64,000 nt of DNA from an uncultured Spirochaetota bacterium (GTDB lineage Bacteria > Spirochaetota > Spirochaetia > SZUA-6 > Fen-1364). Location of the stretch: contig CAWGAA010000001.1 of NCBI GenBank assembly GCA_963820525.1, forward strand, positions 2,432,001 to 2,496,000, given 5' to 3'. The number at the start of each line of letters is the position of its first letter. The first letter of the stretch is position 1. This document shows positions 25,672 through 42,810 of the stretch, one piece after another. Made by a program: the position numbers and the translations under genes. The notes below the pieces were generated by a model, which ran no database searches, was not told the origin of the DNA, and saw nothing but the letters and a program-made list of their open reading frames with translations.

Positions 25672-25700
25672 TTTACAACATTACATTATCATGATATCTT
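25672..25700 (+). promoter_or_regulatory. Sigma70-type promoter of the FadR-like gene/rightward operon
   Basis: TTTACA-17 nt-(TGA)TATCTT, then 7 nt to ATG 25708. Confidence 0.65.
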
Positions 25701-25707
25701 ACCACCC

Positions 25708-26496
25708 ATGCACCAATGGGGAATGGGCCTTGAGCCGATCGGCGACACCGACAAGATCCAGCAGATCGTGAAGGTGCTCCAGGACTTCATCATCGAGGGC
25801 AATCTGAAGCACGGCACCGAGCTTGAAGCGGAACGGGTCCTCGCCTCGCGCCTGGGGGTGAGCCGCTTCAGCCTGCGCGAGGCGCTGCGGGTCGCCGAAG
25901 CCCAGGGACTTATCGAAATCTCCCGCGGCCGCAGGCCCCGGGTGGCCCGGATGTCGTCGGACGCGGCGGCCAAGATGATCGCGCTCGTTCTGCGCCGGAC
26001 GAAAAAGACGCTCCTCGACCTGATCGCCGCGCGCCAAGGGCTCGAGACCCAGATCGCCCGCCTGGCGGCGTCCCATGCCGAGGAAGCGCAGATCATCGAG
26101 ATGCAGAAAACCATCGAAGCCATGGAGCGAAACCGGGACAATCCCGAGGTCTGCGTCGAGGAGGATATCAAGTTCCACGGCGCCCTGGTGCAGGCGACGG
26201 GCAACGTCGTCTTTGAAGTCATGCTTGCTCCCCTCGCCGAGCTTCTCCGGGATTCCCGCAAGGAGACGATCCGGCATGGCATCGACCGGGTCGTCGTCGG
26301 GCACAAGGCGATCCTGGCGGCGGTTCTCAAAGGAGATCCGGAAAAGGCCGCGCAGGCCATGTATCAACATCTCAAGATGGCCGAGGAGGATCTGAGGAAG
26401 AACCTGGGAAACCCGAAAACAGGAGGTCCTCGCAAGAGCGTACGAAACGGTGCGTACATCGAGAGCGGGATACGGAGGCAGAAGCCGTCCGCGTGA
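25708..26496 (+). CDS. FadR/GntR-family transcriptional regulator (wHTH + FCD)
   Basis: AERVLASRLGVSRFSLREAL; FCD motif DIKFHGALVQATGN...H...MYQHL; alternative start 25723. Confidence 0.9.
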   Translation: MHQWGMGLEPIGDTDKIQQIVKVLQDFIIEGNLKHGTELEAERVLASRLGVSRFSLREALRVAEAQGLIEISRGRRPRVARMSSDAAAKMIALVLRRTKKTLLDLIAARQGLETQIARLAASHAEEAQIIEMQKTIEAMERNRDNPEVCVEEDIKFHGALVQATGNVVFEVMLAPLAELLRDSRKETIRHGIDRVVVGHKAILAAVLKGDPEKAAQAMYQHLKMAEEDLRKNLGNPKTGGPRKSVRNGAYIESGIRRQKPSA

Positions 26497-26549
26497 ATCC
26501 CCTCGGACGGCGGGGCGCGCCGACGAGGAGAGAAACCCGTGGAGAGGTT

Positions 26550-27815
26550 ATGGTTGTTGATTTCCCCTACTCCGATGTTCCCAGCCTGCGCATCCCGGAC
26601 GGTAATCTGCTCGGCGTATTCGCGGCCCGCAACCCCGCGCCTCGCGCGGGTGTCGACATGCTCGTCCGTGAGGCGCTCGCCTCCCCCATCGGGTCCCCCC
26701 GGCTCCGGGAGATGGCCCGGGGAGCGAAACGAGTCCTCATCGTCGTGGATGACAACAGCCGCCCAACCCCGGTCCATGCCATCCTTCCGCCGGTGCTGGA
26801 CGAGCTCGGCGCCGCGGGCGTCCAAACCTCGCGCATAGAGTTTCTGCTCGCGTTGGGGACCCACCGCTTCATGACCGATGAGGAGATCGCGGCGAAGCTC
26901 GGGAGGGGGGTAGCGGAGCGCTTCCCCGTTTTCAACCACGACTGGAACAATCCATCGGCCTGCCAGCTTATCGGCACGACGTTCAAAGGCGTCGAGGTAT
27001 GGATGAACAAGAAAGTGGTCCAGGCCGACCTCGTCATTGGAATCGGCCTGATCATGCCGATCGACGTGTGCGGTTTCACCGGCGGCGGCAAGATCCTCGT
27101 GCCGGGAACTTGTGGTAGAATCACCAACGACGAAATGCATTGGAATCGGGTCGGCGTGCCCGACGAGCAGGTGATGGGCAGGCGGGACAATGCAGTGCGG
27201 GCCGCGATCGACGAGATGGCGAGGAAAGCGGGGCTCGGCTTCATCGTGAACGTGATCCTCGATCCGCGCGCCGGAGTCCTGCACGCGGTGGCCGGCGACA
27301 TGGTCGATGCCCACCGCAGAGGATGCGAGCTCTCCTTCGAGGCCCACTCCGTCCGGCTTCCCTGCCAGGCGGATATCGTGGTTGCCGACAGCCACCCCTT
27401 CGACATCGATTTCTGGCAGGCGAACAAGGCCCTCGATCAGGCCGGCCTCGCCGTGCGCAAAGGAGGAGCCCTGATCCTCGTGACGCCCTGCGTGGAAGGC
27501 TTCTCGGCCACCCACGGCGAGCTCTCCCGGCACGGATACCCGCCCGTGGAGGAGATCAAGAGAATGGTCGAGCAGGGAACCGTGGGCTCGAAAGCCGTCG
27601 CCGTGCACATGGTGCAGGTGAGCAAGGTGGCTCGGGAGAGGGCGACGGTGATCGTGGTCACGCGGGGAATCTCCCCCGCTGACCTTCGAAGAGCGGGAAT
27701 GGAGCATGCGGCAACTCCCCAGGAAGGGCTCCAGAAGGCGCTCGAGCTGGCGGGACCGGGCGCGAAGGTCGCGGTCCTCCAGGGAGCCGCCCAGATGATC
27801 CCGCTCATCGGGTGA
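26550..27815 (+). CDS. LarA-family (nickel-pincer-dependent racemase/epimerase-like) protein
   Basis: PIGSPRL, DDNSRPTP, ALGTHR, GFTGGGK, FWQANKAL, TPCVEG. Confidence 0.85.
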   Translation: MVVDFPYSDVPSLRIPDGNLLGVFAARNPAPRAGVDMLVREALASPIGSPRLREMARGAKRVLIVVDDNSRPTPVHAILPPVLDELGAAGVQTSRIEFLLALGTHRFMTDEEIAAKLGRGVAERFPVFNHDWNNPSACQLIGTTFKGVEVWMNKKVVQADLVIGIGLIMPIDVCGFTGGGKILVPGTCGRITNDEMHWNRVGVPDEQVMGRRDNAVRAAIDEMARKAGLGFIVNVILDPRAGVLHAVAGDMVDAHRRGCELSFEAHSVRLPCQADIVVADSHPFDIDFWQANKALDQAGLAVRKGGALILVTPCVEGFSATHGELSRHGYPPVEEIKRMVEQGTVGSKAVAVHMVQVSKVARERATVIVVTRGISPADLRRAGMEHAATPQEGLQKALELAGPGAKVAVLQGAAQMIPLIG

Positions 27816-27845
27816 TGGGGCCGGAGACAAGGAGGCGCGGATACC

Positions 27846-28589
27846 ATGCACGCGAATCGGCTGGCCGTGGTGACGGGAGGGGCGCAGGGCATCGGCCGGG
27901 CAATCTGTCAGGCTCTCGCGCGAGAGGGAGCCGACCTCATAGTCGTGGACCGAAACTTCGCTGGGGCCGAAGAGACGGCGGACGCCGTGAAGACGCTGGG
28001 CGGAGAGGCTCGGGCGTTCATGGCGGATGTATCCGACGAGGATGCGGTGGTTCGCCTCTTCGCCGAGATCGCCGATCGGGGCCGCCGGCTCGACGTTCTG
28101 GTGAACAACGCGGGCATCTGCCAGCTCTGTTCCATCCTCGACCTTCGGGCCGCCGACTGGGACCGGGTATTGGCGGTGAATCTGCGCGGCACCTTCCTCA
28201 TGAGCCGGGAGGCCTTCCGTCTGATGAAGGAGCAGCGCGGGGGGAAGATCATCAGTATCGCCTCCGCGGCGGCCAAGATCGGCGGCGTCACGGCAGGCGC
28301 TCACTACGCCGCTTCGAAGGCCGGCATCATCGCCTTCGCCAAGAGCCTCGCGCTCGAAGCGGCGCCGTACCGGATCAACGTGAACGTCGTCTGTCCTGGA
28401 CCGATAGAAACGGAGATGACCGACGCCTGGGGCGAGGAGACCAATCGGGCGTTCGCGGCGCGGATCCCCTGGAAGGAGTACGGAAAACCGGCTGATGTCG
28501 CCGAAGCGGTGGTGTTCCTTGCCTCCGAGCGGAGCCGCTATATCACCGGCGAAGTGCTTGACGTGAACGGCGGTCTGGTCATGGATTGA
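27846..28589 (+). CDS. Short-chain dehydrogenase/reductase (FabG-like)
   Basis: TGGAQGIG, NNAG, YAASK, ITGEVLDVNGG. Confidence 0.92.
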   Translation: MHANRLAVVTGGAQGIGRAICQALAREGADLIVVDRNFAGAEETADAVKTLGGEARAFMADVSDEDAVVRLFAEIADRGRRLDVLVNNAGICQLCSILDLRAADWDRVLAVNLRGTFLMSREAFRLMKEQRGGKIISIASAAAKIGGVTAGAHYAASKAGIIAFAKSLALEAAPYRINVNVVCPGPIETEMTDAWGEETNRAFAARIPWKEYGKPADVAEAVVFLASERSRYITGEVLDVNGGLVMD

Positions 28590-28619
28590 GAGGAACGCGC
28601 GGCGGCACGGAGAAGGACC

Positions 28620-30086
28620 ATGAGCGGAGAACCTCCATCTTTTCTGAACCTCATCGGCGAGTCCTGGGCAGAGAGCTCGTCCCGGCGGACCTACGCGGAC
28701 GAAAACCCGTCCCACAGGGGCGCCGTGCTCGGCCTCTTCCAGGCATCTCTGCCCGAGGACATCGCCGCCGCGGTGGACGCGGCATCCCATGCGTTCCCCG
28801 CATGGCGTACGCAGGCTCTGCGAGAGCGGCAGGAGATCATCGGCCGTTTTCTCGCTTCTCTCGCAGGCGCGGTGGAAGAGCTTGCACGGATCATTGCTCT
28901 GGAGAATGGAAAAACGATCAGGGAAGCCCGCGCGGAGGTGGGCTCGGCGCTGGTCGAGGGCAGTTACCACCAGCACCAAGTCTCGCGGCTGATCGGTCAC
29001 ACTCTCCCCATCGGAAGCCCGGGGATCACCGGCTGGGTGCAGTACCAACCCCTGGGGGTTGTCGGGATCATAAGCCCGTGGAACTTCCCCATCAACGTCC
29101 TCTGCAGGAAGGCGCTTCCCGCCCTGCTCGTCGGCAACACCGTGGTGTTCAAGCCCGCCAGCTTTACCCCATGGTCGGCCGTTTTCCTCGCGAGGCTGTT
29201 CCGGGACGCAGGGCTTCCCGCAGGGGTCTTCAATTGCGTGACGGGGGCGGGTGCGACGCTGGGGGACGCCCTGATCGGAGATCCCCGGGTCCGCGCCATC
29301 TCATTCACCGGATCCACCGAAGTGGGCATTGAAATCCAGCAGAAGGCGGCGCGCCGTCTCTTGCGGACCCAGCTCGAACTCGGGGGAAAGAACGCCCTCA
29401 TCGTGACCGACGACGCGGATCTCGAGCAGGCGGCGTCTGCAGCCGTCGCGGCGGGGTTCGCGTGCGCGGGCCAGTGGTGCACCTCAACGAGCCGGATACT
29501 CGTCCAGCGAGGCGCGTATCGCGCCTTCATCGACGCCCTGGCGGCGCGCTCTGACTCTCTCGTGGTCGGTGATCCGCTGGAGGAGAAAACGGACATGGGG
29601 CCGGTAGCGGGCCCTGCCCAGTACCAGCGGATCGGGCAGGCCATCGAGAAAGCCAAAGTGCAAGGGGCCCGGATGATCACCGGAGGCATGGCAGCCGCAG
29701 CGGCCGGCGCCGCCGCTGATGGATACTTCGTGCGTCCCACGCTCTTTGCGGAGGTCACCCCGGAGATGGAGCTCTTCCGGACCGAAGTTTTCGGGCCCGT
29801 TCTGGCGGCGACGCGCTTCGATTCCCTGGAGGATGCACTCAGGCTGGCCAACGATTCGCGCTACGGCCTTTCCTCTGCGATCTTCACGCGAGATCTCGGC
29901 ACGGCGTTCGCCTACATCAATGGGATCGAGGCCGGATTGGCGCACGTCAACATCCACACCGGTTTCAAGGATCCCGCGCTGCCGTTCGGGGGATGGAAGG
30001 AATCCGGTTTCGGTATTCCGGAAAACGATCGGACGGGACTCGAGTTCTTCCTCGACCGCAAGGCGGTCTACGTCAAGACGGAGTGA
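28620..30086 (+). CDS. NAD(P)-dependent aldehyde dehydrogenase (alpha-ketoglutarate semialdehyde dehydrogenase-like)
   Basis: ISPWNFP, SFTGSTEVG, LELGGKN, GQWCTS, EVFGPV, PFGGWKESG. Confidence 0.9.
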   Translation: MSGEPPSFLNLIGESWAESSSRRTYADENPSHRGAVLGLFQASLPEDIAAAVDAASHAFPAWRTQALRERQEIIGRFLASLAGAVEELARIIALENGKTIREARAEVGSALVEGSYHQHQVSRLIGHTLPIGSPGITGWVQYQPLGVVGIISPWNFPINVLCRKALPALLVGNTVVFKPASFTPWSAVFLARLFRDAGLPAGVFNCVTGAGATLGDALIGDPRVRAISFTGSTEVGIEIQQKAARRLLRTQLELGGKNALIVTDDADLEQAASAAVAAGFACAGQWCTSTSRILVQRGAYRAFIDALAARSDSLVVGDPLEEKTDMGPVAGPAQYQRIGQAIEKAKVQGARMITGGMAAAAAGAAADGYFVRPTLFAEVTPEMELFRTEVFGPVLAATRFDSLEDALRLANDSRYGLSSAIFTRDLGTAFAYINGIEAGLAHVNIHTGFKDPALPFGGWKESGFGIPENDRTGLEFFLDRKAVYVKTE

Positions 30087-34276: not shown

Positions 34277-36178
34277 ATGAGCCAGCTCAAGCCGCTGATG
34301 GAGAAGAACTTCCTCGAATACGCCAGTTACGTCATCATCGACCGCGCCATCCCGGACCTCCGGGACGGGTGCAAGCCCGTGCAGAGGCGCATCCTCGCCA
34401 CGCTCTTCGAGATGCACGACGGGAAGTTCCACAAAGTGGCCAACGTGATCGGGGAGACCATGAAGCTCCACCCCCACGGGGAAGTCTCCATCGGAGACGC
34501 CCTGGTGGTGCTGGCCAACAAGGAATACTTCATCGAGAGGCAGGGCAACTTCGGCAATATCATCACGGGCCACGAAGCCGCCGCGCCGCGCTACATCGAG
34601 TGCCGCCTCACGCCCCTTGCCGTGGAGACCCTGTTCAACAAGGCCCTCACCGAGTTCATCCCCAGCTACGACGGGCGCAAGCTCGAGCCTCTGGAGCTTC
34701 CCGCCAAGGTGCCGGTGCTCCTCATGCTGGGGGCGGACGGGATCGCGGTGGGCATGTCCACCACGATCCTTCCCCACAACTTCATCGAGCTCCTGGAGGC
34801 TCAAATAGGCATCCTCAAGGGGGAGAGCGTCGAGCTGTACCCCGATTTCCTCCAGGGCGGCTTCATCGATGTCTCAGACTACCGGGACGGCAAGGGCAGG
34901 GTGCGCATCCGCGCGCGAATCGACCAGGGGGCGCACAAGCTGGTGATCCGCGAGGTACCCTACTCCACAACCACCACCAGCCTCATCGCCTCGATAGAGA
35001 ACGCGGTGCAGAAGGGCAAGGTGAGCGTCAGCACCATCTCGGACTTCACAACGGACAGGGTGGAGATCGAGCTTCACCTCTCGCGCGGAGCCACACCGGA
35101 GAAGGTGGTGGACCAGCTCTACGCCCACACCGACTGCGAGGTGTCGATCAACTCCAACATCGTTGTCATCCGCGGAAACAGGCCCATAGAGATCGGGGTC
35201 TCGGAGTACCTGGAAGAGTTCACCTCCATCCTCAAGAAGCAGGTCAAGGCGGAGCTGGAGCACGAGCTGGCCGTGCTCGAGGATAGAAGACACTGGCTCA
35301 CCCTGGAGCAGATCTTCATCGAGAACCGCGTCTACAAGCACATCGAGAAGGCGGCCACGGAAGAGGCGGTGCGCAAGCAGGTCTTCGAGGGGATGAAGCC
35401 GTTCAAGAAGAGCTTCGTCCGCCCCATGACGGATGATGACGTCACGCGCTTGCTGGATCTGAGGATCAGGCGGATCTCGGCCTATGACATCAAGAGAAAC
35501 CGGGGGGACATCGACGACATTGTCGCGGCCATCAAGCAGGCCAACGCAAAGCTTCGAAACCTCACCAAGACGGCGGTCGCGTGGCTGCTCGGGCTCATCG
35601 AAAGCTACGGGGAGCGCTACCCGCGGCGCACCCTCATCGAGACGTTCCACACGGTGGACAAGCTCGCCGTGGCGCGGGCAAACATCCGCCTCACGTATGA
35701 CCGCGACTCAAGCTTCTTCGGCTCCAGCGTCCGCGGCTCCGAGTTCGTGATGAACGTGACGGAGTACGACAAGATCCTGGCAATAACCTCGGACGGCACC
35801 TACCGCGTCATGACGCCGCCGGAGAAGGCATGGATGCCGGGCGTCCTGTTGTACGCGGCCGTGTTCGACTCCAAGAAGGGCGCCGGGTTCACCGTCATCT
35901 ACCGCGACGCGAACAAAGCCGCCTGGGGAAAGAAGGTGCGCATCGAGCGGTTCATCACGAACAAGGTCTACCCGCTCGTGAAGGAAGGGTCCCTCGGGAT
36001 AGACTTTCTTTCGGACAAGAAGGCGCCGGGGACGGTCGTGCTCCACATGGTCCCGGCCAAGCGGCAGAAGCAGAAATCGATCACGGTGGACCTTGGCAAG
36101 CTTCCCCCCTGCGGCCTCGCGGCGCGGGGAACGCGCCTCACCGCCAAGGCGATGGAGCGTGTGGAGCAAAAACCATGA
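34277..36178 (+). CDS. parC: DNA topoisomerase IV subunit A
   Basis: RAIPDLRDGCKPVQRRIL, HPHG, catalytic Tyr in AAPRYIE; no GyrA-box, short CTD. Confidence 0.88.
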   Translation: MSQLKPLMEKNFLEYASYVIIDRAIPDLRDGCKPVQRRILATLFEMHDGKFHKVANVIGETMKLHPHGEVSIGDALVVLANKEYFIERQGNFGNIITGHEAAAPRYIECRLTPLAVETLFNKALTEFIPSYDGRKLEPLELPAKVPVLLMLGADGIAVGMSTTILPHNFIELLEAQIGILKGESVELYPDFLQGGFIDVSDYRDGKGRVRIRARIDQGAHKLVIREVPYSTTTTSLIASIENAVQKGKVSVSTISDFTTDRVEIELHLSRGATPEKVVDQLYAHTDCEVSINSNIVVIRGNRPIEIGVSEYLEEFTSILKKQVKAELEHELAVLEDRRHWLTLEQIFIENRVYKHIEKAATEEAVRKQVFEGMKPFKKSFVRPMTDDDVTRLLDLRIRRISAYDIKRNRGDIDDIVAAIKQANAKLRNLTKTAVAWLLGLIESYGERYPRRTLIETFHTVDKLAVARANIRLTYDRDSSFFGSSVRGSEFVMNVTEYDKILAITSDGTYRVMTPPEKAWMPGVLLYAAVFDSKKGAGFTVIYRDANKAAWGKKVRIERFITNKVYPLVKEGSLGIDFLSDKKAPGTVVLHMVPAKRQKQKSITVDLGKLPPCGLAARGTRLTAKAMERVEQKP

Positions 36179-36940: not shown

Positions 36941-39079
36941 TCAGGTCCTGCGCAGGACCACGAGCGACACGTCGTCTGCGAGCTTGCCGCCGAACTTCTT
37001 CATGTCTCCGGATTCGGCGAAGGCCGCCACGGAATCCATGATCGCCGTGATGATGGAGTCCGGGTCCTGCCCGATATTCTGGCGGAAGACGAGCTTGAGG
37101 TTCTCCAGCCCGTACTGCTCATCCCTCTGGTTCTTGGCCTCTATGGCGCCATCGGTGTAGAGCAGAAGCACGTCCCCCTTCTCCATGGAGAAGGATCCCT
37201 CGGACTGCTTGGAGCTCACGTACTCGGTCAGCCCGAGGAAGGCCGTCTTGTCGATCATGTCGCGAAGCTCAACCACCGCGTCAGGGGCTTTCCTGTAGAG
37301 AAGGGCAATGAGGTGGGTGCCCGCGTGGGTGAAGGTGCCGTTTCTCTCGACGAGCACGCTGCACGTCATGAACTTGTCGCTTCCAATCCGTTTCTTGTTG
37401 ATGCTGCAAAGGACCTTGTTGATGATGTCGTAGACGTCGGAGATGGCGAGCTCGCGCTTGAGGGCCTGGGACGTGAAGAGCGCCCCGTGCAGGGCCGACA
37501 TGTGAATGAGGGCCATCATTCCCGCGGGAAGGCCGTGTCCGGCGACGTCGCCGATGTCGATGTAGTTTCCGAACTCCATGGGGAAAAAGTCGTAGAGATC
37601 GCCGCCGACCTCGCTGGCGGTGGTCATGGCGCACGAGGCCTCGTAGCCCGGAAGCGAGAGGGAGCGGGGAACGATCGAGGTCTGGATGCCGCGGGCGATG
37701 TCCATCTCCCCGGAGAGGCGGTTCTTCTCCTGCTGGGTCTGCTTTCCCGACATGATGGCGAAGATGATGGAGAGGTTCCCCGTGAGGTTCCTGATGGTCG
37801 TGTCCTCTTGGGGAAGAATCTGGTCGAACTCCGTCTTGAAAAGAACCACGAACCCGGTGAGCTCCTCGTGGTTGAAGACGGGGTACGCCGCTATAAGGCG
37901 GAAGACTCCCTTGAATTGCGGCGGGATGGGAATGATCACCCTGTCCTTGGACTGGAGCATGTCCTTTACCGCCAACTCGCCCATGTCGGTAATGCTCTCG
38001 CGGGCGGCGCCCTGGATGTCCGGCAGTCGGTACACCTGCTGCATGATGAGAGCGTTGATCTCCCTCTGGGAGATGCGCTTCACGGCATCCAGCTTGATGA
38101 GCGGGACGCAATAGTTGAGGATCATCTCGGGGGAATCCACCTGGAGAATGTCCCCCTTCTTGCGGTAGGCCATCACCGCGTTGAACCTCATCGTCGTGAC
38201 GGCAAGACTCCGCTGGGCGGCTTCCAGGAACGTGGACAGCGTTTCCTTGATCATCCGGTAATCCTCTTCGGCATTGCTGGCGATGACACGGTTGATGATC
38301 TCGGTGCGCGATTTTTCAGCTTGCGCCAGCTTCGCGTGAAGGTCGTTCAGGTGGAACATCCTATAGAGGAAATACTCGTGGAATGCGCTCACCGCGAACA
38401 CTATGGTGGGGATGATGAAGGGGAAAAAGGGCGAGGTCGTGAGAAAATTTAGCGAAAAAATGCCCGGAATCAGCATGAGCGCGATGAAAATGTTGAACAG
38501 GGTGAAGGGGTACTTCCGCTGGCGGATGATTCCCTCGTGGAACTTGAACAGGCGGTTGGTGTAATTCGCACAGACGAACAGCGAGGCCGTGAAGAGGAGG
38601 TACAGCCAGTTTGCCACCCCCTGGTAGGGGCGCATGGCCTCGGAATCGATTGCCGGGGCGCTTGCGAAGAGCTGGGCAAGCCCCACGCCCGTCATCAGGG
38701 GGAACAGCACCGTCATCACGATGAATAAGGCGCCGGAGATGGCGAGGAAAATGTATAACGGCCGGAGGCGCGTCTTGAAATCGTCGAAGAGGAAGCTCTT
38801 CCTGATTCGCTGCACGTGGACGGAGTATTCGAGGACGAACAGCGTCCCAAAGGAAAAAAGAGAAAGGAGCGACGCCAGAGGCTTGTAGAACGTCCTCTGG
38901 TTCTCCCCCAAAAGGATTGTGAAGACCAGAAGGACGAGCCCCGAGAATGCGAGCATGATGATGGAGACGAGGAAAACGGCCGGCCTTTTGCCGTATTCGG
39001 TCCGCTTCGCCGCGTCGTACCACAGCACCAGGGAAGCAGCCGAGACCGCGAGGTAGCTGAAGAAGAGGAAGTCCGTCAT
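36941..39079 (-). CDS. Membrane-bound PP2C/SpoIIE (RsbU/SiaA-like) serine phosphatase
   Basis: Multi-TM N-terminus; EMDIARGIQTSI, EVGGDLYD, GDVAGHG, YTDGAIEA, DDVSLVV. Confidence 0.9.
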   Translation of the reverse strand: MTDFLFFSYLAVSAASLVLWYDAAKRTEYGKRPAVFLVSIIMLAFSGLVLLVFTILLGENQRTFYKPLASLLSLFSFGTLFVLEYSVHVQRIRKSFLFDDFKTRLRPLYIFLAISGALFIVMTVLFPLMTGVGLAQLFASAPAIDSEAMRPYQGVANWLYLLFTASLFVCANYTNRLFKFHEGIIRQRKYPFTLFNIFIALMLIPGIFSLNFLTTSPFFPFIIPTIVFAVSAFHEYFLYRMFHLNDLHAKLAQAEKSRTEIINRVIASNAEEDYRMIKETLSTFLEAAQRSLAVTTMRFNAVMAYRKKGDILQVDSPEMILNYCVPLIKLDAVKRISQREINALIMQQVYRLPDIQGAARESITDMGELAVKDMLQSKDRVIIPIPPQFKGVFRLIAAYPVFNHEELTGFVVLFKTEFDQILPQEDTTIRNLTGNLSIIFAIMSGKQTQQEKNRLSGEMDIARGIQTSIVPRSLSLPGYEASCAMTTASEVGGDLYDFFPMEFGNYIDIGDVAGHGLPAGMMALIHMSALHGALFTSQALKRELAISDVYDIINKVLCSINKKRIGSDKFMTCSVLVERNGTFTHAGTHLIALLYRKAPDAVVELRDMIDKTAFLGLTEYVSSKQSEGSFSMEKGDVLLLYTDGAIEAKNQRDEQYGLENLKLVFRQNIGQDPDSIITAIMDSVAAFAESGDMKKFGGKLADDVSLVVLRRT

Positions 39080-39098
39080 AAACGCCTCCTAGAAAGCT

Positions 39099-40175
39099 CT
39101 AATAGTGGTCCAGGACCTGCCGCAGCCGCCGGATCTTCTGCTGGATGGCGTCCACCTGATTCGAGGAGGCTTCCGCCTGAATCCGGCCCGCCAGTTCCCG
39201 GGTCTTGGCAATGATGTCCTTGCTGATCGTCTGCTGCTCCGACGCCTTTTCCTTGGAGAGGTTGCTCACCGTGCGAATGATCTCCACCGCCAGAATGACG
39301 CCCTGAAGCGCACCCGCGACGGAGAGAAGCGAATCCTTCTCCTTCTCGATCTCCCCCGAGGTCACCGTGGTGTGCTCCACAACCTTTCGGACGATCTCCT
39401 GGATATGGGTGACGAAGTCCTCGATGTTCTTCAGCGAGTTCTCGGTTTCCTGGGCGAGCTTTCGGATCTCCTTGGCAACCACGTCGAAGGCCCTGCCGTG
39501 AGCACCCGCGCGCGTGGCCACGACGGATGCATTTATCGAAAGCACATATGTCTTGGAGGAGATTTCGGACATCATCTCCAGTATCCCGACGATCTTTTTC
39601 GACTCATCGTAGAGCCGCCGGGTTTCCTCCAGGGACGCCCCCAGCTCCCCCGTCAGCTCCCTGACCTTGGCCTGAACCTGCTCGGAAAGGGCAAAGGCCT
39701 TTTCCGCGGTCCCCGCGAGGTTATCGGAGATATCGAAGGCCTTCTTGGAATTGTCGAAGATCGACTTGGAGTTGGACTCGAGCCGCTCGATGCTCTGCCC
39801 GAACGAGGTCCAGGCCTCCGAGAAGGACTCTGGGCGCGGGGCCTTCTGGAGCAGGAGCTCCGCTTCTTCCCAGCTCTTCTTCCATTCTTCCCACACGGAT
39901 CTGTCCGGGAGAGCGAGATCGGGCTCCGGGGAAGGGACCGCAGCTTGCTGCCCTTCGAGTGACTGGGCGGAAAAGCCGGCGGAAGCCTCGTCCGCCGGAA
40001 GCGCCCGCCCCTCGCGGGAAAGGATGAGGGAGACCGCCCACGCGACGAGGAAGCCCGCCGCGATGACGGCGCTCCTCACCACGGCGGAGGAAACGAGCCA
40101 TGAGGTGGCAATACAGACGGCCGCGAGCGCGAGAATGATGATGAGCGCCACCGAAGCCCGAGAGCGGTTATTCAA
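39099..40175 (-). CDS. Short methyl-accepting chemotaxis-like protein
   Basis: Two adjacent TMs; hairpin tip TYVLSINASVVATRAGAHGRAFDVVAKEIRKLA; TTG start overlaps the upstream gene. Confidence 0.85.
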   Translation of the reverse strand: MNNRSRASVALIIILALAAVCIATSWLVSSAVVRSAVIAAGFLVAWAVSLILSREGRALPADEASAGFSAQSLEGQQAAVPSPEPDLALPDRSVWEEWKKSWEEAELLLQKAPRPESFSEAWTSFGQSIERLESNSKSIFDNSKKAFDISDNLAGTAEKAFALSEQVQAKVRELTGELGASLEETRRLYDESKKIVGILEMMSEISSKTYVLSINASVVATRAGAHGRAFDVVAKEIRKLAQETENSLKNIEDFVTHIQEIVRKVVEHTTVTSGEIEKEKDSLLSVAGALQGVILAVEIIRTVSNLSKEKASEQQTISKDIIAKTRELAGRIQAEASSNQVDAIQQKIRRLRQVLDHY

Positions 40176-40548
40176 CCTTCACGGCTCCCGGAACGAGGAA
40201 CGTCAGGGTGGGCAGGCTCGTCACCTGCCAGGTGATGTCCTTGTTGTGACGGATCCTGATCAGGTATTTCTTGTCGTCACTGAGATCCGCCAGCTTCATG
40301 ATCCATTTCGCGATTGCCTTGATCCCCGAAGAGTTGAGGAAGGTGAGCTGCATGAAGTCCAGGTCCACCTGTTTTATCCCCTTCGACACGCAGCCGCCGT
40401 GGATCTTGTCAAAGAGCGGATCCAGGATCTCCCCCGGGTCCTGCATGTCGACGTCTCCGACGAAAGCGACGCCGATCCCCGCCGGTGTGTCGGTGACTTC
40501 GATGGAGATCCGCGACTGCTTGACGGGATCGATGGCGAGCTTGTTCAT
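40168..40548 (-). CDS. STAS-like phospho-acceptor (slr1659/SiaC-like anti-anti-sigma type)
   Basis: LDFMQLTFLNSSGIKAIAKWI and ITWQVTSLPTL; SD GAGGAGG. Confidence 0.8.
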   Translation of the reverse strand: MNKLAIDPVKQSRISIEVTDTPAGIGVAFVGDVDMQDPGEILDPLFDKIHGGCVSKGIKQVDLDFMQLTFLNSSGIKAIAKWIMKLADLSDDKKYLIRIRHNKDITWQVTSLPTLTFLVPGAVKVE

Positions 40549-40557
40549 ATCTCCTCC

Positions 40558-41043
40558 TCACGCGCGCTTGGATTCGAGGCTGACCGTCACCGAATCCCCG
40601 TGGACCTTCACATCCATGTCGAGGCCCGTCTCGTAGCGGATCCTGGCAAGCCCCAGCTGGCTCTTGCCGTCCTTCCTCACGGCTGCCTCCCTCATCTGGC
40701 TCATGTATGCCTCAAGAGGATCGCCTTTCATGATCTTCTGGAAGAGAGACTTCAGGGTCTCGACTGCCTCGGTCGAGGCCTGGTTTGAAACGGAGATGCT
40801 GATATTCTCCGCGGTCGTGAGAACGCTGACCGCGATCTTGATGTCGTCCCCGGCGGCGTACTTCACGGCGTTCTCGAGAAGCTCGCTGGCGGCCATCGCG
40901 ATGTTGTCGGCCCGCGTCGTGTCTTGAAGGCTCACCGCCATGAAGCTCTGGATGAAGCTGCGAACGACCGCGATGTACTTCCATCTCGGACCGAAGGAGA
41001 GCTCGATGTACCCGTCCGGTTTCTGGCCTGAGTCTTTTGCCAT
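40558..41043 (-). CDS. HATPase-fold Ser/Thr kinase (RsbW/slr1658/SiaB-like)
   Basis: N-box ASELLENAVKYA; G2-like KSQLGLARI; start MAKDSG after GGAG. Confidence 0.8.
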   Translation of the reverse strand: MAKDSGQKPDGYIELSFGPRWKYIAVVRSFIQSFMAVSLQDTTRADNIAMAASELLENAVKYAAGDDIKIAVSVLTTAENISISVSNQASTEAVETLKSLFQKIMKGDPLEAYMSQMREAAVRKDGKSQLGLARIRYETGLDMDVKVHGDSVTVSLESKRA

Positions 41044-41262
41044 GGCATCTCCCTTCCCTTGGAGAATAGAGCCGAACCAAAGGGAAATCAAGCCGGCGCG
41101 AGTATTGCCGAACGTACGTGAAGGCTTTATATGAGAGTCCCGCCTCGTGAGTATCGCGATTCCCGGCCGATTCCGCAAGTCGGCTGCGGCGGATTCGCTC
41201 GCGGGGCATTCAAGAAGGACTCTCCCTTTACAGCGGGGTAGGGCCTCCGCTACAGTTCGGCC

Positions 41263-42810
41263 ATGAGAACGATGGCGCCCCTGCCTCCTCTCACCAAAGC
41301 CTCTCTCTGGGCCGCGGGGATCGCCGCGGCCGCCGCGGCGATCTGGTTGACAAGCCTTCACAGCTACCTCCTGTTTCACAGCATCTCGGAAATGTTCTCA
41401 ATCGCGATCGCGGCGTGCGTGTTCATGATCTCCTGGAACTCGCGCGATTACCCCGAAGCCCGCCCGTTCGTGATCCTGGGCATCGGATACCTGTTCGTGG
41501 CCGGAATCGACATGATGCACACCCTTTCCTATGAAGGGATGAACGTGCTCACGGAGGTACGAGACTATCCCACCAAGCTGTGGGTAGCCGCCCGGGCTCT
41601 CCAGGCGCTGACGACGCTGGCATTCGCCGTCCTCATGCGCCTGAGAAAGACCGCCCCGCATTCACTCGCCTTTGCGGTCGGCGCCGCGGCCACCGCCTTC
41701 CTGTTTCTGTCCATCTTCCAGTGGAACATCTTTCCCCTCTGCTTCGTGGAGGGCCAGGGAGTCACGGCGTTCAAGAAAGGGAGCGAGTACGCGATTTCCG
41801 CTGTCCTGGCAGCCTGCATCTTCCTTGTGGCAGGAGAGCGGCTGGCGGTGAGCCGGCGGGTGCAGAGCCTTCTCATCTCCGCGTTCGCCCTGAACATCGC
41901 AAGCGAGCTTGCCTTCACCCTCTATACCAGCGCCTACGGGACAGAGAACCTCATCGGACACTTCTTGAAGATCCTCTCATTCCTCTGCACCTACCAGGCC
42001 CTCATCGCCACGGAGGTGCGCAAGCGCATCGCGATGATCGAGGAGTTGGAGAAGGCCAAGGCGGCGCTCGAGAGAAACGAGGGGGAGCTTCGAAAGGCGA
42101 ACATCGCCAAGGACAAGTTTTTCTCGATAATCGCACACGACCTTCGAAATCCCATCGCCGGCGTCCTTACCGTTTCGGAGCTCATCACGCGCAGCTTCGA
42201 CAAGCTGGAGGAGAGAAAGATCAAAGAGCTCTGCGGCCTGATTCTCGAGGGTACCCGCCAGGCAATGGAGCTCCTGGAGAGCATCCTCCAGTGGGCCCGC
42301 ACCCAGACCGGGAGGATCGAATACCGGCCCCGGCCGGTCGGGCTTTTGGAGATCTCCCGAAGCACGGTGGACCTCCTTCACCCCATGGCGGAGCACAAGG
42401 AGATCGAGATCACGCTTCGAGTGGATCGCGAGGCGTGCGCGTATGCGGACGAGAACATGCTTTCCACGGTGCTGCGGAACATCCTTTCCAACGCCATCAA
42501 GTTCACACCGCGGGGAGGCACGGTGGTTCTCTCGGCCCGGGAGAGAGACGAATGCATCGAGCTTTCCCTTTCCGACACGGGCATCGGGATGCGGCCGGAA
42601 GAGCTTGAAAAGCTCTTCCGAATCGACACCCATTTCTCCTCCAAGGGCACGGAAGACGAGCGGGGAAACGGGATGGGCCTTGCGATCTGCAAGGAGTTCG
42701 TGGAGCTGAACCGGGGAACGATCTCGGTGCGAAGCACTCCCGGCGAGGGAAGCGTTTTTACCGTTTGTCTTCCCAAGCGCGGCCCGGCGGGCGCGGTCCC
42801 GAACAACTGA
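41263..42810 (+). CDS. MASE3-domain sensor histidine kinase
   Basis: YLLFHSISEMFSI, DMMHTLSYEGM, LWVAAR (MASE3); KFFSIIAHDLRNP, NAIKFT, GNGMGL. Confidence 0.9.
   Translation: MRTMAPLPPLTKASLWAAGIAAAAAAIWLTSLHSYLLFHSISEMFSIAIAACVFMISWNSRDYPEARPFVILGIGYLFVAGIDMMHTLSYEGMNVLTEVRDYPTKLWVAARALQALTTLAFAVLMRLRKTAPHSLAFAVGAAATAFLFLSIFQWNIFPLCFVEGQGVTAFKKGSEYAISAVLAACIFLVAGERLAVSRRVQSLLISAFALNIASELAFTLYTSAYGTENLIGHFLKILSFLCTYQALIATEVRKRIAMIEELEKAKAALERNEGELRKANIAKDKFFSIIAHDLRNPIAGVLTVSELITRSFDKLEERKIKELCGLILEGTRQAMELLESILQWARTQTGRIEYRPRPVGLLEISRSTVDLLHPMAEHKEIEITLRVDREACAYADENMLSTVLRNILSNAIKFTPRGGTVVLSARERDECIELSLSDTGIGMRPEELEKLFRIDTHFSSKGTEDERGNGMGLAICKEFVELNRGTISVRSTPGEGSVFTVCLPKRGPAGAVPNN

Follow-up and report, generated by a model that had tools for sequence, protein, structure and literature searches.

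A spirochaete partner-switch operon with a dedicated sensor-less chemoreceptor-type protein suggests a link between two signalling designs

Partner switches control sigma factors and cyclic di-GMP (c-di-GMP) enzymes, and chemoreceptors are driven by small ligands, by redox state, or by c-di-GMP via PilZ adaptors. In the Sia system, the kinase SiaB is reported to phosphorylate SiaC at Thr68, and the PP2C phosphatase SiaA to remove this phosphate (bioRxiv 10.1101/674879). A second study describes how unphosphorylated SiaC binds to the stalk of SiaD, a coiled coil, such that Thr68 slots between the helices, whereas phosphorylation prevents binding; its authors suggest that SiaC-type proteins modulate what the neighbouring gene encodes (PMC8457831). 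The operon considered here is located in a 64,000-nucleotide stretch of contig CAWGAA010000001.1 (the window, meaning this entire stretch), which comes from the 5.05 Mb, four-contig genome of an uncultured Spirochaetota bacterium (GCA_963820525.1). Its four genes encode a small kinase (K), a small STAS-fold protein (S), a methyl-accepting chemotaxis protein (MCP) without a sensor domain, called the mini-MCP below, and a membrane phosphatase (PP2C). The operon is a SiaABC-like Ser/Thr partner switch, a real module, accompanied by a dedicated and diverged mini-MCP. This arrangement suggests an undescribed link between partner-switch and chemoreceptor signalling.

The four open reading frames (ORFs) are co-directional, occupy positions 36941-41043 of the minus strand in the order K-S-MCP-PP2C, and have gaps of 9, -8, and 19 nucleotides when calculated from their coordinates, as the initial annotation had it. 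The ATG codon of K is preceded by GGGAG, which resembles a ribosome binding site. A promoter and terminator scan of the operon region yielded nothing above shuffled sequences, including a simple sigma-70 scan that found no minus-strand site. Neither the operon itself, the 16 flanking ORFs scanned (22-56 kb), nor the immediate neighbours encode a sigma-factor or GGDEF domain, in agreement with the first assessment that these established outputs are missing from the locus.

By curated cut-offs, the operon proteins fall outside the Sia and slr1658/slr1659 families, yet they work like these proteins, which are their nearest relatives. K matches the Pfam models HATPase_c (29.5 bits), HATPase_c_2 (28.3 bits), and DUF6272 (23.8 bits). 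It had been described initially as slr1658/SiaB-like, and the first half of this label is the better one: slr1658_superfam (NF047703) is its best NCBIfam family at 72.7 bits, which is below the cut-off of 100, whereas SiaB_fam (NF038262) gives 18.3 bits against a cut-off of 85. The corresponding label for S, slr1659/SiaC-like, stands for the best NCBIfam family (slr1659_superfam, NF047705; 47 bits, again below 100) and for a SiaC-like fold, but S has no Pfam match at E up to 0.01, SiaC/DUF1987 (PF09345) included. The position of both proteins below the cut-offs of the slr1658/slr1659 families points to a separate spirochaete branch. The phosphatase is likewise distant from the SiaA family (NF038263), with 25.5 bits against a cut-off of 700.

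Sequence-profile searches of the PDB gave only weak matches, for K to SpoIIAB (E 0.08) and for S to anti-sigma antagonists (E 0.02), with no match to SiaB or SiaC at E up to 1, and a fold search was therefore needed. An AlphaFold2 (AF2) model of S with a mean predicted local distance difference test (pLDDT) score of 94.9, together with Foldseek, confirmed the STAS fold. The best E-values were obtained for SpoIIAA (1tid_B, E 7e-6) and 4qtp, RsbV was also matched, and the highest TM-score among the matches listed belongs to SiaC (7e6g_F, TMq 0.68; SiaC chains 0.63-0.68). The FLNSSG sequence that was proposed as the phosphosite has survived scrutiny as a candidate: Ser73 aligns with the phospho-Ser column (DS-x-G) of anti-sigma antagonists in the PDB profile alignment, and residues N72, S73, and G75 are invariant in 42 of 42 relatives. 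Judged from its predicted fold and its sequence, S has the makings of an antagonist of the Rsb/SpoIIA kind, with the STAS fold and, where helix 2 begins, a Ser that could be phosphorylated. The same genome encodes a further S-like protein at another site (L018, G000:C3:618191-618508, in the stretch G000:C3:612001-624000), a distant paralogue with 29% identity (E 3e-6), whose gene is followed by a 470-amino-acid methyltransferase-like gene and a PilZ gene.

The phosphatase carries a SpoIIE domain match of 87.6 bits (residues 509-711) in which the metal-binding motifs GDLYD, DVAGHG, TDG, and DDVS are retained. At least five hydrophobic segments are present in its residues 1-230, so the initial call of a PP2C with multiple transmembrane (TM) segments holds. 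A homologue at one related locus (L038) shows a weak GAF match in the middle domain. In K, the N-box residues E54, E57, and N58 and a G2-like LGLxRI sequence are invariant in alignment A6, which combines the window sequence (40558-41043) with 15 relatives. The same alignment shows that an Asn (Asn87) occupies the position of the G1-box Asp throughout the family, including the second kinases of the type 2 operons described below. In GHKL ATPases, this Asp binds adenine, and the substitution indicates that nucleotide use by K may be unusual.

The only domain recognized in the mini-MCP is MCPsignal (PF00015; 75.2 bits against a cut-off of 34.6), and neither a sensor nor a HAMP domain is present. 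Its AF2 model (pLDDT 76.5) consists of helices at residues 2-26 and 31-55, a disordered linker at 57-89, and a hairpin formed by helices 116-223 and 228-335. A loop of four residues joins the two N-terminal helices, which means that there is no periplasmic domain, just as had been noted at the outset. Most members of the subfamily have two TM helices, and five complete members lack these hydrophobic segments and are soluble forms. A conservation profile from 38 unique family sequences revealed that residues 1-140 and 310-358 are variable, with the TM anchor and linker the least conserved, although E313 is nearly invariant in an [AS]-x-E-[EQ] context. Besides the hairpin tip, conservation is concentrated in two family-specific patches. 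Residues 148-168 form a candidate docking site. By the helix spans of the model, their distance from the tip is similar to that of residues 283-303, and the two patches probably face each other in the hairpin. Foldseek searches with the model are not discriminating: they matched MCP domains (2ch7, 3zx6, 3g67) together with unspecific coiled coils made of long antiparallel helices, SMC arms for example.

The association between the mini-MCP and the kinase-STAS pair is evident when conservation is viewed from the MCP side. A scan of metagenome contigs with the mini-MCP alignment returned 80 loci, which were split by their score with the A5 family profile into 28 mini-MCP loci (at least 157 bits) and 52 loci with ordinary MCPs (102 bits or less). 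One mini-MCP locus starts at a contig edge; S is directly upstream in 25 of the 27 informative ones, and K is also present wherever the contig reaches that far. By contrast, none of the 52 ordinary MCPs has K or S nearby (within about 4 kb). Enough downstream DNA is available at 21 of the mini-MCP loci, and at 19 of these the MCP is followed by PP2C. The 401 sampled Spirochaetota genomes contain just six full-length mini-MCP matches (318-404 bits; the next scores 109), all abutting an S match, when four candidates per genome were scored with a query alignment that already included these six. A search of 5.8 billion proteins found 38 clusters matching the mini-MCP at E up to 1e-20, and those with a named organism are all from spirochaetes, a Treponema sp. 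isolate among them. On the strength of these sequence counts, the mini-MCP is a small distinct subfamily found almost only beside K-S.

The same association can be examined from the kinase-STAS side. Scanning species-representative genomes with S identified 14 loci at 52-69% identity, all in Spirochaetales, Spirochaetaceae, or Treponema assemblies. K is upstream of S in each of the 14; two loci end immediately after S, and among the remaining 12 an MCP gene lies between S and PP2C in nine. The mini-MCP is present in both same-class genomes. In a K+S tree (FastTree, midpoint-rooted), MCP-bearing loci fall in two distant clades, one of which comprises the type 2 loci. In the 401-genome sample, 108 genomes contain a match to the S profile, frequently more than one each, and K and S are adjacent in all 29 loci returned. 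Protein clusters hint at such pairs outside Spirochaetota too, in Myxococcota and Cyanobacteriota. One subclade (L003, L004, L005, L010, L012, and L048) has a gene for a FabH-like 3-oxoacyl-ACP synthase III directly before K.

Several operon architectures were observed. In type 1, to which the window operon belongs, the order is K-S-MCP-PP2C and the MCP and PP2C genes abut or overlap. In type 2 (L078, L079, L138, and L140), K-S-MCP is followed by a second kinase paralogue, with a PAS hybrid histidine kinase upstream of the operon in L078 and L079. Another locus (L080) consists of K-S-MCP and lacks both PP2C and a second kinase. No PP2C match was found in the examined stretches of these five K-S-MCP loci, from which it follows that the constant partner of the mini-MCP is the K-S pair and not the phosphatase.

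In related K-S pairs, the position directly after S is occupied by other signalling proteins. All encoded on the same strand as S, these are a TM-GGDEF protein at L033/L034 (extended as L062/L063), where K is preceded by a PilZ gene, an HD-GYP protein (L041, L043, and L045), a GAF-HisKA-HATPase-REC kinase with a convergent sensor PP2C (L042, L044, and L046), or a TM-GAF-PP2C protein (L038 and L039). Some distant spirochaete pairs carry an apparently unrelated housekeeping gene at this point. The recurrence of signalling enzymes in this slot supports the view that it holds the effector, as with SiaC and SiaD, and the initial proposal that the MCP occupies the output position fits this comparison. 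Gene content at these loci shows that the spirochaete K-S pairs are a modular kit in which the effector can be exchanged, being a GGDEF protein, an HD-GYP protein, a hybrid kinase, or an MCP. A divergently transcribed 484-amino-acid MCP beside K-S (L053-L056 and L059) was considered as a further case and rejected; it has the canonical Glu tip and is confined to five loci of one genus.

Other features of these related loci were recorded as well. The small PilZ gene before K-S in L062/L063 is also found in L052 and L057, and the PilZ-K-S-GGDEF cassette of L062/L063 is closer to SiaABCD logic. In the HD-GYP and GAF-HisKA-HATPase-REC proteins that follow S in L041-L046/L068-L073, the first 170 or so residues are related to each other, match no Pfam family, and contain the motif F-M-x-D-N-P-x-E-A; this common region could be an S-docking module. 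A convergent sensor PP2C of the HAMP or 4HB type is present in L068, L069, L071, and L073. In L076 and L077, two pairs are arranged as mirror images (S-K-K-S), and a gene for a BrkB-like membrane protein comes next. In one same-class genome (L075, G159:C42), a second S copy follows genes for an Hsp20-like protein of 165 amino acids and a histidine kinase, and adjoins a divergent CheB-CheR-PAS fusion of 961 amino acids.

The model that we favour, at somewhat less than even odds, is that the partner switch gates the chemoreceptor, so that a signal sensed by the membrane PP2C would reach a CheA/CheW array with unphosphorylated S (or K) as the receptor's ligand. It builds on gene order, domains, folds, co-occurrence, and the family signature, from which we infer the protein contacts, the direction of signal flow, and the connection to CheA. 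In this scheme, K would phosphorylate Ser73 of S, and a cue from the membrane or envelope would lead PP2C, as the input component, to remove the phosphate. By analogy with SiaC and SiaD, unphosphorylated S might then dock on the mini-MCP coiled coil, or K, once released by S, might do so instead. The likely docking sites would be the two distal patches or the altered tip. Docking would set the signalling state of the mini-MCP, and this state would be relayed to a CheW/CheA unit via the otherwise canonical hairpin tip. The ligand of such an MCP would be a cytoplasmic phosphoprotein and not a chemical. The parts of the model differ in strength. Functional coupling of the mini-MCP to K-S is very probable, and a place for it downstream of S or K is slightly favoured. 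The complete chain through CheW and CheA is more tentative, falling a little short of even odds, and a chemosensory output is plausible but unproven. Complex prediction with two copies of mini-MCP residues 125-358 plus S gave scores of 0.12 and 0.28 (mark 0.32), which were counted neither way.

The tip of the hairpin is central to the question of whether the mini-MCP still contacts the chemosensory machinery. The initial annotation regarded this tip as intact, a claim that must be revised: it is MCP-like but not canonical, and all 28 subfamily ORFs have another residue in place of the conserved Glu, namely Val in 26 and Thr in two. The operon MCP reads N-A-S-V-V-A where all 13 other MCPs of the genome have N-[AS]-[AS]-I-E-[AS]. 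Among the ordinary MCP ORFs from the metagenome scan, the Glu was present in 56 of 57, the remaining one having no motif match. Of the two patterns used to scan for the tip, one required Val/Thr; the other made no such demand, yet it recovered no family member with Glu. The next acidic position (AG-E) and the Gly after it are lost also. We take the two acidic positions to correspond to the trimer-of-dimers contacts E385 and E391 of E. coli Tsr, in which case canonical array packing may be lost in the mini-MCPs. Three positions aside, the tip residues are canonical (N215, G224, G227, F230, V232-A234, E236, R238, and L240). In total, about 27 of about 30 tip positions are canonical across members that are only 30-55% identical overall. 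This degree of tip conservation suggests a conserved partner, and the survival of most canonical residues at such low identity makes continued contact with CheW/CheA the default expectation. The source genome encodes three CheA proteins, one in a Wsp-like system, and several CheW proteins. The Wsp-like cluster is located outside the window (L017, G000:C1:3146001-3165000) and comprises CheW, CheW, a 4HB-HAMP MCP, a CheA-REC hybrid, CheB, and a REC-HisKA-HATPase protein, with a REC-PP2C gene (398 amino acids) about 6 kb away. The post-tip length of its MCP is among the two shortest of the other MCPs of the genome and near that of the operon MCP.

A number of observations weigh against a mini-MCP that acts through CheA and CheW under control of the switch. 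Apart from the tip changes and the lack of HAMP, there is the weak domain match: among the 14 MCPsignal genes in the genome, that of the operon scores lowest (78 versus 97-130 bits in the genome search). Its hairpin arms are short, about 108 residues each, with a post-tip length of about 135 residues compared with at least 158 in 10 of the 13 other MCPs, and the regions about 80-110 residues from the tip, where methylation sites are expected, are poorly conserved. No che genes were found in the window stretches scanned (22-56 kb plus the immediate neighbours), the nearest CheW-domain genes being elsewhere on the contig, and CheW was encountered at only two of 42 related loci (326 kb). The link to the switch also has exceptions. 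The proposal that the MCP is tied to the partner switch is borne out by the conserved unit and the S counts, but MCP is missing from three of the 12 orthologous operons (L006, L010, and L015), in which PP2C directly follows S. Absence from orthologous operons had been named at the outset as grounds for refutation, so that this result tells partly against the proposal. The genomes of these three loci contain no mini-MCP elsewhere when all candidates are scored (best A5 match 87 bits), and the loci nest inside an MCP-bearing clade of the K+S tree, which would imply at least two MCP losses. The switch therefore persists without the MCP. Conversely, two mini-MCP loci lack K-S. One of them (L102) carries only PP2C fragments, and the other (L103) has a FabH-like gene directly before the MCP, where relatives have this gene before K. 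When fused forms were sought, no longer protein with an S domain emerged, and so no STAS-MCP fusion, which is weak evidence. Finally, the Asn at the adenine-binding position leaves the kinase activity of K itself unproven. The two loci with a nearby CheW gene are related metagenome loci (L105 and L106), where this gene and one for an MTS-type methyltransferase are located 2-3 kb upstream of K-S-MCP-PP2C.

The subfamily-wide tip changes, the short hairpin, the absence of HAMP, the scarcity of che neighbours, the MCP losses, and the Asn of K bring another explanation close behind, although we still consider it unlikely. The mini-MCP could be a repurposed coiled coil that has no contact with CheW or CheA and serves as an effector or membrane scaffold of the switch, the true output being something else acted on by K, S, or the MCP. 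Its hairpin would bind S and/or K and might, for example, sequester K at the membrane, taking the part that the sigma factor has in Rsb/SpoIIA systems. The variable distal ends, the conserved patches outside the Pfam match, the second kinase gene directly after the MCP in type 2 operons, and the existence of soluble members all fit such a role. However, the canonical majority of tip positions is difficult to explain without canonical partners, except if these residues are needed simply to form the hairpin. We know of no MCPsignal domain described as working without CheW/CheA. Missing che neighbours count for little, because it is common for MCP genes to be dispersed and remote from che genes.

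The signal could also flow in the opposite direction, with a membrane-anchored mini-MCP acting upstream as a transducer, through which a membrane signal or the activity of chemoreceptor arrays would regulate PP2C (or K). The abutting or overlapping MCP and PP2C genes of type 1 operons, the frequency with which PP2C follows the MCP, and the membrane location of both proteins would suit this arrangement, and flow from Che systems to partner switches has published precedents in the Shewanella Che1 system with CrsR/CrsA (PMC9855816) and in F7 stage-1 clusters (PMC7184735). We judge it considerably less probable than the scaffold role, given that the MCP retains K-S but not PP2C in five loci, that an anchor and linker which are the least conserved parts and missing from five complete members would be odd for a membrane sensor, that PP2C has large multi-TM and middle domains of its own, and that the same slot holds output enzymes in related pairs. 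It is more doubtful still that the target, whether a sigma factor, a c-di-GMP enzyme, or another protein, is encoded elsewhere and that the mini-MCP is an optional accessory modulating the switch in some lineages. K-S-PP2C without an MCP does persist in at least five genomes (L006, L010, L015, L066, and L086), including the three in which no mini-MCP was detected elsewhere, 12 SpoIIE-type phosphatase genes in the source genome point to extensive partner-switch signalling there, and S is widely distributed. Nevertheless, the scanned flanking ORFs lack sigma-factor and GGDEF genes, and occurrence almost only beside K-S argues for a specific and not a loose partnership. Chance insertion of an ordinary orphan MCP gene into a partner-switch operon is highly improbable. 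Although MCP genes are numerous and scattered in this genome, the distribution of S between mini-MCP and ordinary-MCP loci already contradicts chance, as do the six-of-six adjacency in the genome sample, the 8-nucleotide overlap with S and 19-nucleotide gap to PP2C, and the distinct sequence signature. Gating of the mini-MCP by the partner switch remains the explanation that we prefer.

The coordinates of the operon features are given in Table 1. The flanking genes code for subunits of a type II topoisomerase, a MASE3 histidine kinase, a methyltransferase, and proteins of sugar transport. The MASE3 sensor histidine kinase gene (41263-42810, plus strand) is divergent from the operon and is not kept beside it in relatives. 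This kinase, the methyltransferase, topoisomerase subunit A (34277-36178), and a PNPOx gene were considered as parts of the system and dropped, since they gave no tblastn match at any of the 14 related loci. Farther away, two large minus-strand ORFs at 25699-29048 (223 and 894 amino acids) have no Pfam match at E up to 1e-5, and their GC content at third codon positions of about 0.7 makes these gene calls uncertain. The DNA sequencing runs that contain the sequence are wetland, sediment, and soil metagenomes; no RNA run was listed, which has no bearing on whether the operon is transcribed.

Table 1. Positions of the operon genes and their features in the window
Feature	Position	Strand	Description
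Intergenic region, 219 bp	41044-41262		between K and the divergent MASE3 histidine kinase gene; presumed to hold the operon promoter
Kinase K	40558-41043	minus	161 amino acids, ATG start; GHKL (anti-sigma-type) Ser/Thr kinase related to the slr1658 superfamily
STAS protein S	40168-40548	minus	126 amino acids; STAS-fold phosphoprotein (putative), FLNSSG
Ser73 of S	40330-40332	minus	in FLNSSG; putative phosphosite
Mini-MCP	39099-40175	minus	358 amino acids, TTG start; sensor-less MCP-domain protein
Mini-MCP membrane anchor	40011-40172	minus	residues 2-55; two hydrophobic helices (AF2 and hydrophobicity)
Mini-MCP N-helix patch	39672-39734	minus	residues 148-168; family-specific, outside the Pfam match (which starts at residue 177)
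Mini-MCP hairpin tip	39426-39563	minus	residues 205-250; most conserved part of the family
Mini-MCP Val219	39519-39521	minus	replaces the conserved tip Glu
Mini-MCP C-helix patch	39267-39329	minus	residues 283-303; conserved, VAGxLQGV...
PP2C	36941-39079	minus	712 amino acids; membrane phosphatase
PP2C multi-TM region	38390-39079	minus	residues 1-230
PP2C SpoIIE/PP2C domain	36944-37612	minus	residues 490-712; a middle domain lies between this and the multi-TM region

A sensor-less chemoreceptor-type protein that occurs almost always together with a kinase and a STAS protein would link two signalling designs directly. If the receptor does take unphosphorylated S or K as its ligand and pass the signal into an array, a reading to which we give a probability of roughly 35%, the operon represents a new input route into chemosensory arrays, and the MCP signalling domain becomes a new class of partner-switch effector beside sigma factors and c-di-GMP enzymes. 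Should the mini-MCP still reside in arrays, it would show how a signal based on phosphorylation can enter taxis or a different Che output. Otherwise, to our knowledge, it would present an MCP signalling domain that works outside the CheA/CheW context. In either case, the mini-MCP signature (the change of the tip Glu to Val or Thr plus the two distal patches) provides concrete residues to mutate. What is new here is a dedicated mini-MCP in a SiaABC-like switch. The module and the tie between its parts are well supported, and the chemosensory output route is plausible.

The closest studied parallel is SiaABCD of Pseudomonas aeruginosa. Its operon, too, has genes for a PP2C of the membrane, a GHKL kinase, and a STAS-fold phosphoprotein, the latter two both small, and a fourth gene for a dimeric coiled-coil signalling protein. 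The differences are that the fourth gene here encodes an MCP-domain protein instead of the GGDEF cyclase SiaD, that the order is K-S-X-PP2C, where X is the fourth gene, and that K, S, and PP2C all fail Sia family membership by sequence. The adjacent slr1658/slr1659 pair (NF047703 and NF047705; DUF6272) shares the kinase-STAS arrangement and supplies the best-scoring families for K and S. No description of an MCP partner of this family was found in the literature, where the matches, judged from their listing, mention both genes in passing. RsbU/RsbV/RsbW and SpoIIE/SpoIIAA/SpoIIAB follow the same PP2C, STAS, and GHKL kinase logic, but the operon and its scanned flanks have no sigma factor gene, and K and S are only remotely similar to these proteins in sequence. 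In HsbA-HsbD and BgrV-BgrR, the partner-switch STAS protein is reported to act directly on a GGDEF enzyme (PMC8457831); there the target is this enzyme and not an anti-sigma factor, whereas here the candidate target is an MCP.

The initial annotation also held that the system had not been described. Full-text literature, for which most matches were judged from their listing, yielded no paper on a kinase-STAS-MCP-PP2C operon or on a K-S-bound MCP subfamily. The general idea is nonetheless less unprecedented than was thought, which also weighs against the novelty of the proposed link, since clusters with an MCP beside an antagonist and a phosphatase are in print. Specifically, ancestral stage 1/2 F7 che clusters are described as having an mcpA-like receptor beside an anti-sigma antagonist and a serine phosphatase (PMC7184735), and in Shewanella che1, McpA is encoded beside the CrsR/CrsA partner switch and, despite belonging to an atypical heptad class, is reported still to form CheA3 complexes (PMC9855816). 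As in the window, the MCP gene of these loci is directly beside genes for a STAS protein and a Ser phosphatase. Those genes, however, lie inside a full gammaproteobacterial che cluster and have a different kinase architecture and a sigma-factor output. In a comparison with McpA that relies on its published description, the spirochaete operon is distinguished by the absence of che genes, a separate kinase, a membrane PP2C, and a dedicated sensor-less MCP.

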